The notes beneath the pieces were generated by a model, which saw only the letters and a program-made list of their open reading frames with translations, was not told the origin of the DNA and searched no databases. Below are positions 8,800-12,698 of a stretch of 64,000 nt of DNA, piece after piece. The position numbers were made by a program, and so were the translations under genes. The stretch is taken from the UHGV virus genome UHGV-0326994; one strand, written 5' to 3'. Positions within the stretch are counted from its first letter, which is position 1, and the number at the start of each line of letters is the position of its first letter. This DNA is from a virus.

Positions 8800-9014
8800 A
8801 AATCGCAGATATTATAGATTTATATCAAACTGCAAAGAGTCATGGCTATATAACCTCAATTGGAAAGAATAGTCACTATGATGCTTTGACTGGAATGTAT
8901 TTCAGGGCAATGGCTCAATCTAGTGAACAGCACTTGATGGTTTCTTCCAGTGAGTTTACTTCGTTTCTCTATTGCAGCAAAATTATAAATCGCAGGAGAA
9001 CTGAAAAATGCTAA
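8781..9014 (+). CDS. hypothetical protein (77 aa)
   Basis: ORF track; AGAGGA RBS. Confidence 0.4.
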   Translation: MCSSQLEIADIIDLYQTAKSHGYITSIGKNSHYDALTGMYFRAMAQSSEQHLMVSSSEFTSFLYCSKIINRRRTEKC

Positions 9015-9598
9015 CAGTAAGTTTTAATTATAATAGTGACGGCTCTGTATCAATTAATTCACCATATGCAAATGACCTACTTAAAGAGCTAGTTAATCAG
9101 TGTGATAGAGGTCTTCACTATGTCCCAAATTCTTTCAAACAGAAGACTATTGCTAATAACTTAATGCGTGTGACGGTTACAACATCAAACCCAGACTATG
9201 ACATTGGTAGTGAAAGCCCTTACTCTTTAGTGGCTCTTGGGGAATGCAGTCAATTCAAGCTCGTATGTCATGACTCAGAAACATTTCTTAAGGTATTTTC
9301 CAGCCTTATTCACAATAATAAGTATGGGTACGTTGACGGTAGTGTAAACTTCTATCCAGCAAACTATACATGCCTATTGATTGATAATATGAGAAGTAAC
9401 AAACATGAACCTACAGAAATTTCATTTGATGTGAACTCTAGTCCAGACGCAGAAACAAGTAACAACTTTGATATGAGTTACGCACTATCACTTAGTAAAA
9501 AATCCGAGTTCATTGATTATGTCAATGGATTTGGTTTTAAGTTTGACGAGAGTATGAATCTCAAAAAGCTTAAGAACCTACTTAAGACTAAAGCTTAA
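9008..9598 (+). CDS. hypothetical protein (196 aa)
   Basis: ORF track; GGAG RBS; hairpin terminator follows at 9607-9630. Confidence 0.55.
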   Translation: MLTVSFNYNSDGSVSINSPYANDLLKELVNQCDRGLHYVPNSFKQKTIANNLMRVTVTTSNPDYDIGSESPYSLVALGECSQFKLVCHDSETFLKVFSSLIHNNKYGYVDGSVNFYPANYTCLLIDNMRSNKHEPTEISFDVNSSPDAETSNNFDMSYALSLSKKSEFIDYVNGFGFKFDESMNLKKLKNLLKTKA

Positions 9599-9606
9599 GT
9601 GTAAAT

Positions 9607-9630
9607 AGGGGCTAGTGCCCCTTTATCTAT
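9607..9630 (+). terminator. intrinsic terminator
   Basis: Hairpin AGGGGCTAGTGCCCCT followed by T-rich run. Confidence 0.5.
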
Positions 9631-9645
9631 TTATAAGGATATTTA

Positions 9646-10017
9646 ATGAAGGCTAAGAGTGCAAAAGACTTTTATTGCTTCCTACAATCCTATATCCGCT
9701 CCGTGGAGAATGGTGAAAGATATAATCTTAATGATGTTATTGCATCACCTTTAACATGGAGACTAAGTAGATGGCCTGAAGAAGATATCACACCAACTAG
9801 CGAACAACCTACCTACAACCCAGATATTAATCTCCCAGATTCAGATAAGTTACTGTACCCAATGTTCCACATTGTCGGACTTGGCACGTTTCTTATGGAT
9901 ATTCAGTATGTAATTGGTAAAGGTTATAAGGTCGAAGGTATCGTTGTTGGTGATGTATCTCCACAACATAAAGGCTATTTTAGATTAAACGCACGTTTAG
10001 AGGCTAAAAAGAAATGA
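9646..10017 (+). CDS. hypothetical protein, paralog of the N-terminal domain of the downstream Ig-like protein
   Basis: About 120 aa align with the first 120 aa of ORF 10014-11396 (shared W-PE-DI, DLLY, FMDLQY-I-GK motifs). Confidence 0.55.
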   Translation: MKAKSAKDFYCFLQSYIRSVENGERYNLNDVIASPLTWRLSRWPEEDITPTSEQPTYNPDINLPDSDKLLYPMFHIVGLGTFLMDIQYVIGKGYKVEGIVVGDVSPQHKGYFRLNARLEAKKK

Positions 10018-11396
10018 TTAAAGCAAAGACTTACCCAGACTTCAAAGAGTTCGTAAAGGGTTTCGTTGCAAATGTAAAGGCTGGTAAGAGGTATGATTTT
10101 AGAACATATCAAGAGGCTATTTTGCCACTTACTTATAGTTCGTATTGGCCTGAAGCTGATATTGCAGAAGTTGAGAAGTTTGACTACAAACCAGACTACA
10201 AAGTCCCATTTAGAGATGATTTGCTTTACAGCATCGGTGCTCAAATGAGAACTTCTGATTTCTTCATGGATTTGCAATACGCAATTATCAATGGTAAAGA
10301 CGTTGATACTGTTTATTGTGAATGGCTGGCAAGAGTTAAACCATTCTCAATGTTAAATGCTAAGCTGAAAGATGCCATTAAACCACCAGCAATCACTCAG
10401 CAACCAACAAATCAAACAGTCAATGAGGGTGGTAAACTTACCCTTAGTGTTGTTGCATCTAATGCCACTGGCTATCAGTGGAAGAAGGATGGTGAGGACA
10501 TCTCCAGTGCCACCTCTGCAACTTACACAAAACAGTCAGTGGTTCCTTCTGATGCTGGTTCATACACTTGTGTTGTATCTGGAGAGGGTGGAACAAGTGT
10601 CACATCAGATGCAGCAACAGTTACTGTGAATGCCTTACCAGTGATTACTAAGCAACCTTCTAACCAGACTATCAATGAAGGTGGAAACATCAGCTTAGCA
10701 GTTACTGCAACAGGTGCAACTGGTTACCAGTGGAAGAAAGATGGTTCTGACATCCCTTCAGCTACAAAGGCCACATATAGCAAATCTGGTGCACTTCCAG
10801 CAGATGCTGGTTCCTATACTTGCGTTGTAACAGGTGCTGGAGGTTCTGTCACTTCTAACCCTGCAACCGTTACTGTAAAAGCTTTACCAGTTATCACTCA
10901 ACAGCCAACTGCAAAAACGGTTAACGAGGGTGGTACGCTAACCCTTAATATCGCTGCAACTGGTGCAACAGGCTACCAGTGGAGCAAAGATAACGTAAAT
11001 ATTGAGGGAGCAAAATCTGCAACCTTTACCAAAGCTAGTGTAACACCTGCTGATGCTGGGTCTTACAAATGTACGGTAACTGGCGCAGGTGGAAATGTAG
11101 TCTCTAACGCTGCTGTAGTCACTGTTAATGCGCTTCCTGTAATCACTCAACAACCAGCCAATCAGGAAATCACTGAAGGTGAGACCTTAACTCTGAATGT
11201 TGTGGCAACAGGTGCAACAGGTTATCAGTGGAAGAAGGGTGGCACGAACATTCCTAGTGCAACTGCTGCAACTTACACCAAAGAGAGTGCAACCACTGAT
11301 GATGCAGGAAGCTACACTTGTGTAGTTACTGGCGCAGGTGGCTCTGTAACATCTAGTGCGGCAACAGTTACAGTTAACCCAGCAGGGGAGGCATAA
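10014..11396 (+). CDS. Ig-like (BIG-type) repeat protein with five tandem domains
   Basis: Five 84-aa repeats (PVITQQP-NQT-NEGG...ATGATGYQWKKDG...DAGSYTCVVTGAGGSVTS) after a 120-aa N-domain. Confidence 0.7.
   Translation: MIKAKTYPDFKEFVKGFVANVKAGKRYDFRTYQEAILPLTYSSYWPEADIAEVEKFDYKPDYKVPFRDDLLYSIGAQMRTSDFFMDLQYAIINGKDVDTVYCEWLARVKPFSMLNAKLKDAIKPPAITQQPTNQTVNEGGKLTLSVVASNATGYQWKKDGEDISSATSATYTKQSVVPSDAGSYTCVVSGEGGTSVTSDAATVTVNALPVITKQPSNQTINEGGNISLAVTATGATGYQWKKDGSDIPSATKATYSKSGALPADAGSYTCVVTGAGGSVTSNPATVTVKALPVITQQPTAKTVNEGGTLTLNIAATGATGYQWSKDNVNIEGAKSATFTKASVTPADAGSYKCTVTGAGGNVVSNAAVVTVNALPVITQQPANQEITEGETLTLNVVATGATGYQWKKGGTNIPSATAATYTKESATTDDAGSYTCVVTGAGGSVTSSAATVTVNPAGEA
10378..11390 (+). 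repeat. five tandem copies of a 252-bp coding repeat (Ig-like domains)
   Basis: Periodic recurrence of ...ggttaccagtggaagaa...gatgctggttc...tacacttg... visible in DNA and protein. Confidence 0.7.
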
Positions 11397-11860
11397 TGCA
11401 ACTCTCAAGAAAAGGTTTAGACGCTATTAAGTTCTTCGAAGGTCTGAAGTTAGAAGCTTACGAAGACTCTGCCGGAATCCCAACAATTGGGTATGGGACA
11501 ATCCGTATTAACGGAAAACCTGTTAAGATGGGAATGAAAATTACTGCTGAACAAGCTGAACAGTATCTTCTCGCGGATGTTGAGAAGTTTGTTGCAGCAG
11601 TGAACAAAGCTATCAAGGTTCCAACTACTCAGAACGAGTTCGATGCACTTGTAAGTGAAACATACAACATCGGTATCACAGCTATGCAGGATTCTACATT
11701 TATCAAGCGCCACAACGCTGGTAATAAGGTAGGTTGTGCAGAAGCTATGCAGTGGTGGAACAAGGTTACAGTCAAAGGTCAGAAGGTCACTTCAAATGGA
11801 CTGAAAAACAGACGCAGAATGGAAGCTGACATTTATCTTGACAGTGTATACCCAAAGTAA
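11396..11860 (+). CDS. endolysin, GH24 phage lysozyme family
   Basis: N-terminal EGLKLEAYEDSAGIPTIGYG catalytic motif typical of T4/lambda-type lysozymes; GGAGG RBS; terminator downstream. Confidence 0.8.
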   Translation: MQLSRKGLDAIKFFEGLKLEAYEDSAGIPTIGYGTIRINGKPVKMGMKITAEQAEQYLLADVEKFVAAVNKAIKVPTTQNEFDALVSETYNIGITAMQDSTFIKRHNAGNKVGCAEAMQWWNKVTVKGQKVTSNGLKNRRRMEADIYLDSVYPK

Positions 11861-11870
11861 TATCTTCATA

Positions 11871-11894
11871 GGCTCCTTCGGGAGCCTTTTTTAT
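11871..11894 (+). terminator. intrinsic terminator
   Basis: Hairpin GGCTCCTTCGGGAGCC followed by TTTTTT. Confidence 0.6.
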
Positions 11895-11911
11895 TTTCTA
11901 AGGAGAAAACT

Positions 11912-12310
11912 ATGAAGCTTTGGGCTAGTGACTTTGGGACTTTTAAGTACACCCGTAATGGTTCAATGGTGAGAATCATTGGCAGCCAGATTGTAGTAAA
12001 TGGTGATGAGGTTTCTACAAAGTTCACTGTAGAGTTAGCTGAGCTATCACCTATTACCCGTGCTAAAGATGGGCTTTTCAGGTTCGAGATTTACAAAGTA
12101 GATGAGTATGGTCGTTTCAACCCTCTTGGAGAAAGTGGATTAGATATTATTTCTGAACACCCATTGACAGCAGAGCAATTGTCAGGTTACTATAAAACCA
12201 TCCTTGAAAGAGAGTTAGCAACTCATGAGTGTGAAGCAAGATACCATATTGAACGTTGCGAAACACTCAAAGAAAAGATAAAACTAGCAGAGAGAGGTTT
12301 TTATGAATAA
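11912..12310 (+). CDS. hypothetical protein (132 aa)
   Basis: ORF track; AAGGAGA RBS. Confidence 0.55.
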   Translation: MKLWASDFGTFKYTRNGSMVRIIGSQIVVNGDEVSTKFTVELAELSPITRAKDGLFRFEIYKVDEYGRFNPLGESGLDIISEHPLTAEQLSGYYKTILERELATHECEARYHIERCETLKEKIKLAERGFYE

Positions 12311-12698
12311 TAACAGTCATATCCATGTTAAAGTTGATGCCAGTCGTTACAGCGAAAATGAAGAATTAGACCTGAAAGATGCTATTCTTTTTGAGAAGAA
12401 TGGTAACCTTCATTTGCATTTTGAAGGTACAAACACATATCTCCACAGATGCCGAGATGATGCCGATGGTTGTCCTGTTTTTGCTTGGTACAATTTAGAG
12501 TTCCCTCTTTATGCAATCCACTACCCAGATGGTGGAGAGGACTGGACTACTCAATCAATCTTTGATGAGCTTAATGGTGTTCCAGTTGAGCAAGAAGAGC
12601 AAGAACCTGTTGAACTAACCTTCACCTTCATCAAAGAAGAGAAGGTAGGTGATTTGTCTGTAACTGAAGCAATTCAAGTCTCACAGGTTATTCGTTAA
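12303..12698 (+). CDS. hypothetical protein (131 aa)
   Basis: ORF track; start overlaps stop of upstream gene. Confidence 0.5.
   Translation: MNNNSHIHVKVDASRYSENEELDLKDAILFEKNGNLHLHFEGTNTYLHRCRDDADGCPVFAWYNLEFPLYAIHYPDGGEDWTTQSIFDELNGVPVEQEEQEPVELTFTFIKEEKVGDLSVTEAIQVSQVIR

Follow-up and report, generated by a model that had tools for sequence, protein, structure and literature searches.

What is the function of a protein that carries a string of immunoglobulin (Ig)-like domains and is encoded directly in front of a phage endolysin, and what is the meaning of a small gene immediately upstream that repeats its N-terminal domain? This question is raised by three consecutive genes in the UHGV virus genome UHGV-0326994, from which a stretch of 64,000 nucleotides (the window) was analysed. 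The open reading frames (ORFs) at 9646-10017, 10014-11396 and 11396-11860, all on the + strand, were placed exactly by a preliminary description made from the sequence alone, in which the Ig-like protein was regarded as a cell-wall-binding or virion-associated partner of the lysin. Our analysis partly confirms that observation and partly supports its interpretation. Judged by orthology, the protein of 460 amino acids (aa) is Hex-Dec, the Hoc-like protein which decorates the capsid of Felix O1-like phages and which is already known and structurally solved; it is neither a tail protein nor a lysin partner. A cassette of three genes, comprising Hex-Dec, an independent endolysin and a duplicate that consists of the capsid-binding domain (CapBD) only, is very probably the best explanation of the locus as a whole. 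The main feature of the locus is already known; the residual novelty lies in the CapBD-only paralog and is modest.

Identity and capsid role of Hex-Dec

The window is Felixounavirus DNA. Its region 9000-12400 matched 243 phage records in megablast, nearly all of them Felix O1-like myophages of Escherichia, Salmonella, Shigella and Citrobacter, and the best match is Escherichia phage JohannRWettstein (Bas63) with 89.8% DNA identity. The cryo-electron microscopy (cryo-EM) paper on Bas63 gave the name Hex-Dec to the 460-aa ortholog, the gene of which is separated from the structural module by more than 10 kb (PMC12609058). The product of the whole gene at 10014-11396 (+) shares 427 of its 460 residues (92.8%) with Bas63 Hex-Dec, and in the N-terminal CapBD (residues 1 to approximately 122; 10014-10379, +) 120 of 122 residues are identical. 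Accordingly high scores were obtained with phmmer against the PDB, i.e. E 3e-278 to 9NCF_S (residues 1-458) and E 2e-165 to 9C2D_S. The syntenic position of Hex-Dec is identical in 29 loci.

The structural work on the orthologs tells where such a protein is found. In the T=9 capsid of Bas63 and Sf14, the 60 pentamer-proximal hexamers are each plugged in the centre by a monomer via its N-terminal domain (PMC12609058, PMC11821841). For Sf14 gp20, the binding domain was located within the first 118 residues, mass spectrometry showed its presence in particles, and only pentamer-proximal hexamers are occupied while the true-3-fold hexamers are left unoccupied (PMC11821841). In Sf14 gp20, salt bridges connect Arg79 and Arg107 with residue Asp221 of the major capsid protein (MCP) (PMC11821841); both arginines are present in the Hex-Dec of the window, and they are invariant across the CapBD orthologs aligned. 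The four predicted Ig-like domains that follow CapBD in Bas63 Hex-Dec are unresolved in the map (PMC12609058). In Felix O1, the corresponding Gp36 was found in virions by mass spectrometry with 44% coverage and was called a tail protein there (PMC3185647). The earlier expectation that Ig-like repeats mark a virion surface protein is thus borne out by the orthologs, which were seen on the virion by cryo-EM (9NCF, 9C2D) as well as by mass spectrometry (Sf14, Felix O1). The labels "tail protein" and "major tail protein" in GenBank and PHROG (phrog_3995) are historical errors, and the correct label for many GenBank records would be "Hoc-like hexamer decoration protein".

By orthology, Hex-Dec should be located on the capsid of this phage as well. 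It weighs against this reading that the placement is taken from orthologs; otherwise, nothing substantial was found against it. An MCP gene in which Asp221 could be checked was searched for, and no candidate of the expected size and position is found within the 64-kb window; synteny with Felix O1 suggests that the MCP gene and the structural module are outside, beyond the window start. [quoted passage not shown] By analogy with T4 Hoc, these domains may give weak surface adhesion or control particle aggregation, and they are probably not essential for infectivity. In the PhageMaP study, Bas63 g124 was needed more on strain S17-1 than on three other compared strains (PMC11482910), which would fit an accessory adhesion role as proposed for T4 Hoc.

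The endolysin and its junction with Hex-Dec

The third gene (11396-11860, +) does encode a GH24 lysozyme, as had been described. Its product of 154 aa matches PF00959 with E 5e-41, contains E15, D24 and T30 of the Glu-X8-Asp-X5-Thr triad, belongs to the endolysin family phrog_7 and is devoid of an N-terminal hydrophobic anchor; its orthologs are Felix O1 ORF35 and Bas63 gp123. In the PhageMaP paper, gene 123 of Bas63 would be the latter if the numbering there follows the locus tags. The preliminary description regarded the gene as fused with that of the Ig-like protein. The overlap on which this was founded exists, since the stop codon TAA of Hex-Dec and the ATG of the lysin have one base in common (TAATG, 11394-11398), but fusion is not what it amounts to: these are separate genes, and the coupling junction (11385-11398, +) also contains a Shine-Dalgarno (SD) motif, GGGGAGG, of the lysin's own.

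A frameshift or read-through that joins 10014-11396 to the lysozyme had also been considered. When the junction was compared, no conserved signal for either event was found, and sequence, spacing and frame vary among the loci. The SD motif is the sole conserved feature across 19 loci, the distance from the Hex-Dec stop to the lysin start ranges from +3 to -9 nt among relatives, and the relative frame differs in locus L032. Because distance and frame vary in this way, a conserved fusion of Hex-Dec and lysin by frameshift or read-through could be ruled out. Moreover, the lysin frame in this window is interrupted by a stop at 11375-11377; a shift would have to take place within the remaining 18 nt, and no slippery heptamer of the type X XXY YYZ occurs there.

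These results also bear on the wider idea that the lysozyme has in the Ig-repeat protein a cell-wall-binding or virion-associated partner, be it functionally linked to the enzyme or joined to it by frameshift or read-through. The idea could draw on the base common to both genes in this window and on the CapBD gene that is found directly upstream of a lysozyme even in distant lineages. Nevertheless, we consider it very improbable. The orthologs sit on capsid hexamer centres via their N-terminal domain (PDB 9NCF, 9C2D; PMC12609058, PMC11821841), and the lysin is provided with its own conserved SD at variable spacing and frame. Furthermore, Felix O1 Gp36 is listed at 31.6 kDa, which equals the calculated mass of the unfused protein, and the maxima in reverse transcription PCR (RT-PCR) are apart, 25 min for lysin ORF35 and 60 min for ORF36 and ORF37 (PMC3185647); this timing table is crude and lists, for example, the MCP gene as early. 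The adjacency of Hex-Dec and lysin is indeed kept in the divergent metagenomic loci L037 and L038 and in the more distant L041-L043, but the synteny covers the whole neighbourhood beyond this pair. In the distant lineages the conserved block consists of genes for DUF2828, DUF5681, a 62-aa ORF, a 185-aa ORF, CapBD and the lysozyme. Hence, the adjacency of CapBD and lysozyme points to lineage synteny rather than to a specific pairing. The stop/start overlaps in the cassette are ordinary translational coupling. The endolysin would then be an independent soluble GH24 enzyme, which is translated from its own SD and coupled to Hex-Dec by the one-base overlap only.

Number and variation of the Ig-like domains

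The repeats of Hex-Dec are Ig-like as had been noticed (Pfam Ig_3, E 3.8e-43; I-set, E 4.8e-33); their number is four and not five. Pfam finds four stretches, which form a tandem array at 10383-11393 (+) with units at 10383-10634, 10635-10883, 10884-11132 and 11133-11393 (+), each of 83-87 aa. The four repeats share 61-72% identity with each other at the protein level and 61-66% at the DNA level. Owing to this low DNA identity, Tandem Repeats Finder returned nothing on 9600-11900, and the repeats were defined at the protein level.

The copy number of Ig-like domains varies considerably. Among the 29 loci, one, two, three and four copies were counted in 3, 11, 10 and 5 loci, respectively. According to the Bas63 paper, other Felixounavirus species possess one to three Ig domains (PMC12609058). 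Beyond Bas63, a Hex-Dec with four was found in at least four genomes or contigs, namely this window, pinkbiff (L002), L015 and L019. The four-Ig form does not belong to Bas63 alone, which contradicts what that paper states about ICTV species.

As a side observation, the Ig repeats (10383-11393) have a match in the bacterium Aureispira, whose grappling-hook protein GhpA (5898 aa; PDB 9FLP) is hit with E 1e-83 over 14 stretches, far better than any other non-phage protein. On the sequence level, this match suggests an exchange of Ig modules between phage and bacterium.

The CapBD-only paralog

The first gene of the cassette (9646-10017, +; 123 aa) was recognised early as a paralog of the N-terminal domain of the 460-aa protein, and this relation is well founded. 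It shares 35% identity with the CapBD of Hex-Dec (E 7e-17), matches the two solved chains with E 2.7e-12, and the PHROG families of both proteins cross-hit. The AlphaFold2 (AF2) model, with a predicted local distance difference test (pLDDT) score of 70.6, matches in its fold only 9c2d_S, 9ncf_S and 9c3a_S. Taken from sequence and model, the 123-aa gene is a genuine CapBD paralog that keeps the CapBD fold. An internal pseudo-C2 repeat (lobe L1 vs. lobe L2) was undetectable at the sequence level, with z about 0, and net charge/isoelectric point (7.8 for the paralog vs. 7.7 for CapBD) gave no discrimination.

The orthologs of the paralog are Felix O1 ORF37, Bas63 gp125 (bas63_0125) and Sf14 gp21, and it is a full-length member of phrog_4463 (E 4.5e-78), a family of unknown function. 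According to tblastn, 253 phage records contain the family, and the best match reaches at least 60% identity in 233 of these, which we read as an intact paralog. In all 29 loci, taken from phage and viral-contig collections, its ORF spans 122-124 aa and is always directly upstream of Hex-Dec, and it is also intact in the divergent loci L037 and L038. The paralog is widespread, under selection and reported to be late-expressed, and it is not discussed in the two structural papers or the gene-essentiality preprint: the texts of the Bas63, Sf14 (PMC11821841) and PhageMaP papers leave it unmentioned. The wV8 proteome paper contains no text on gp41 or gp42. In some databases the paralog is called "tail protein" because it resembles Hex-Dec, which is mislabelled in the same way.

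Median ratios of nonsynonymous to synonymous substitutions (dN/dS; Nei-Gojobori, 29 loci) amount to 0.12 (paralog), 0.044 (CapBD), 0.11 (Ig domain 1) and 0.075 (lysin). The value of 0.12 shows that the paralog is under purifying selection, although it evolves faster than CapBD. The best conserved segment comprises residues 68-92 (entropy 0.24) and spans the site of the replaced Arg79, which is Gly in 30 of 30 loci aligned (the 29 plus L037). At the site that corresponds to Arg107, the aligned orthologs have Gln, Asn or His, with Gln in this phage, and only the divergent L037 has Arg. It is improbable that such a gene is a duplicate in decay or without function, given its dN/dS, the ORF length held at 122-124 aa across at least four lineages, one of them divergent and metagenomic, and the blocks that are invariant across genera.

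It could further be asked whether the paralog is made as part of a larger protein. The genes of paralog and Hex-Dec overlap as ATGA, Hex-Dec is read in frame -1 with respect to the paralog, and AAA-AAG is found 3 nt before the paralog stop. Geometrically, this window would allow a -1 frameshift at T-AAA-AAG, which would yield two tandem CapBDs followed by the Ig array. However, neither Mooglevirus, which reads GCT AAG AAA TGA here, nor the Suspvirus-like loci possess the motif, L026 has another relative frame, and in L037 the two genes overlap by one base only. What is conserved here is a GAGG Shine-Dalgarno element for the Hex-Dec start, and no Gp37 peptides are listed for Felix O1 virions (PMC3185647). 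As the motif is not conserved, this fusion was rejected, and it is the least probable of all explanations weighed here.

Possible function of the paralog

The same fold, the reported late co-expression and the strong constraint on the surface equivalent to the capsid-contacting loops indicate a role in binding that involves the capsid or Hex-Dec. On the other hand, the lost arginine anchors, the absence from virion lists, the true-3-fold hexamers that are empty in two maps and the loss in one clade argue against a stable, required structural role. We tentatively propose that the paralog, with the CapBD fold kept but the anchor Arg79 changed to Gly and, in this phage, Arg107 to Gln, would act at the capsid or on Hex-Dec in late assembly, either as a transient or low-affinity occupant of the hexamer centre or as a partner of Hex-Dec before binding. 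We commit ourselves to this transient or low-affinity role in late assembly as a possibility that stays somewhat short of probable, and its support is weak. The paralog is probably not a stable major component of the virion. We are likewise committed, on weak support, to the view that it has no role in lysis; an unrelated new function takes the remaining probability.

The opposite view would be that the paralog is a second, Ig-less decoration protein that is stably present in the virion, for instance on the 20 true-3-fold hexamers, where a monomer could be smeared by icosahedral averaging. Its fold is the same as that of CapBD, it was reported as late-expressed together with morphogenesis genes, and the purifying selection is strongest on the segment equivalent to the capsid-contacting loop. 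In addition, the Sf14 authors report a different Asp221 geometry at the true-3-fold hexamers (PMC11821841), which makes a differently shaped binder conceivable. We regard such a stable decoration protein as unlikely, because four observations oppose it, and the same four weigh against our own proposal of a late assembly role. First, Gp37 is not among the Felix O1 virion proteins, in a mass spectrometry data set with a cut-off of at least 25% coverage in which proteins of 11-14 kDa were detected (PMC3185647). Second, no density was reported on the other hexamers in the cryo-EM of Bas63 or Sf14 (PMC12609058, PMC11821841). Third, the capsid-anchoring arginines are missing, Arg79 throughout and Arg107 in most cases. 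Fourth, one clade of phages that are normal in other respects has lost the gene; approximately 7.5% of the related genomes carry the paralog only as a deleted remnant, and it is internally deleted in the REP11 clade, which indicates that it is dispensable at least in some settings. Our proposal is further weakened by the fact that the paralog (gp21) does not appear in the structural table of Sf14 (PMC11821841) and that its late expression is taken from the crude Felix O1 RT-PCR table. The negatives from the virion lists are not decisive.

A more far-reaching version, which we consider rather unlikely but worth naming, is that the paralog represents an unrecognised functional capsid-directed factor, either as a third, low-copy decoration protein on the hexamers avoided by Hex-Dec or as a late gate or tuner of Hex-Dec binding. 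If true, it would help to explain why only 60 of 80 hexamers are decorated. A paralog that modulates decoration would bear on site-selective binding to quasi-equivalent hexamers and on the use of Hex-Dec as a display scaffold.

Evolution of the locus

The CapBD family is narrow, since a profile built from paralog and CapBD hit only 12 clusters among 1.84 billion representative proteins; the same search gave no informative distant homolog of known function. Its most distant members are encoded by a single CapBD gene before the lysozyme. In P0061, L039 and L040 the single CapBD is followed by one Ig-like domain. P0060 and L041-L043 have a Lys/Ser/Glu-rich low-complexity tail, no Ig domain and no solo paralog; an example is the gene for 153 aa at 6001-6462 of the metagenomic contig L041, which lies directly before the lysozyme. 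The single gene in distant relatives indicates that the solo paralog is a derived tandem duplicate. Only CapBD would have been duplicated in tandem, in the ancestor from which Felixounavirus, Mooglevirus and Suspvirus descend.

In Salmonella phage SP3_SHan-2021 (L003, MW296865), the pair is replaced by a single gene for 292 aa (2501-3379) with two Ig domains. Its product is chimeric: residues 1-47 of the paralog are followed by Hex-Dec, which starts with residue 50, and the two parts are joined at the shared WPE(E/A)DI motif near the linker between the two CapBD lobes. This lobe-swap chimera, the remnant in the REP11 clade and the single-gene loci of ancestral type in distant relatives could serve as ready-made genetic experiments on the paralog.

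Borders and surroundings of the cassette

Terminator-like hairpins at 9607-9622 and 11870-11887 bracket the three genes as a cassette. The upstream hairpin (9607-9622, +; AGGGGCTAGTGCCCCT with a T-rich tail) corresponds to Felix O1 t38, and the one that closes the cassette (11870-11887, +; AGGCTCCTTCGGGAGCCT then TTTTTTATTTT) corresponds to t35. Table 2 of the Felix O1 paper places t38 (ggggctgatgcccctttaactatttat) between ORF38 and ORF37 and contains t35 as well (PMC3185647). The gene order is the same in Bas63, with bas63_0125, 0124 ("immunoglobulin-like domain protein") and 0123 (endolysin), and in Felix O1, with ORF37, ORF36 ("tail protein") and ORF35 (endolysin). The motif TATTTATAAG, found between the upstream hairpin and the paralog start, was considered as a late promoter and dropped, because it is not enriched in the window (9 matches vs. 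8.9 expected). A sigma-70 scan gave fewer sites than in shuffled sequences.

Several neighbouring genes deserve a brief mention. A cluster of 25 tRNA genes, among them two for tRNA-Met, occupies 588-6354 (-), as in Felix O1 and Bas63. The gene at 6520-7935 (-) encodes a DUF2828/TROVE-like protein of 471 aa, orthologous to bas63_0130 and annotated as "RNA-binding protein" in some relatives; according to a figure legend in the PhageMaP paper, the Bas63 delta-130 mutant is impaired on the "ppl" defence system (PMC11482910). Downstream of the cassette, the 131-aa ORF at 12303-12698 is called "D-alanyl-D-alanine carboxypeptidase" in several GenBank relatives. This label is doubtful and looks like a propagated misannotation, since PHROGs assigns the ORF only to phrog_4348, a family of unknown function.

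Comparison with known systems

The closest known counterpart is the direct ortholog Hex-Dec of Bas63 (9NCF chain S; QXV81815, bas63_0124), which has the same CapBD arginines, the same four Ig domains and the same genomic position; 31 of the 33 substitutions between the two proteins fall into the Ig array. Sf14 gp20 (PDB 9C2D, 9C3A chain S) is homologous and differs by its three Ig domains from the four found here. To pb10 of T5 (PDB 5LXK, 8ZVI) the likeness is restricted: the last Ig repeat of Hex-Dec matches it with E 5e-12, whereas pb10 has a single Ig domain, and its capsid-binding domain is not among the fold matches of the CapBD paralog model.

The most instructive comparison is that with T4 Hoc, which is likewise a non-essential monomer at hexamer centres with a string of Ig-like domains, and the Ig repeats of Hex-Dec match the "Hoc-like head decoration" families of PHROG. 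However, these hits cover residues 129-458 only, and outside the Ig domains there is no sequence similarity between the two proteins. The domain order is reversed, with the capsid-binding domain at the C-terminus of Hoc and at the N-terminus of Hex-Dec. The Bas63 authors described the CapBD of Hex-Dec as larger than that of Hoc, topologically distinct and pseudo-C2 symmetric (PMC12609058). Unlike T4 Hoc, Hex-Dec occupies only 60 of 80 hexamers in the phages of its orthologs. As far as the sequence tells, Hex-Dec carries no homolog of the C-terminal domain 4 of Hoc; it is not a member of the Hoc family, but it works like Hoc.

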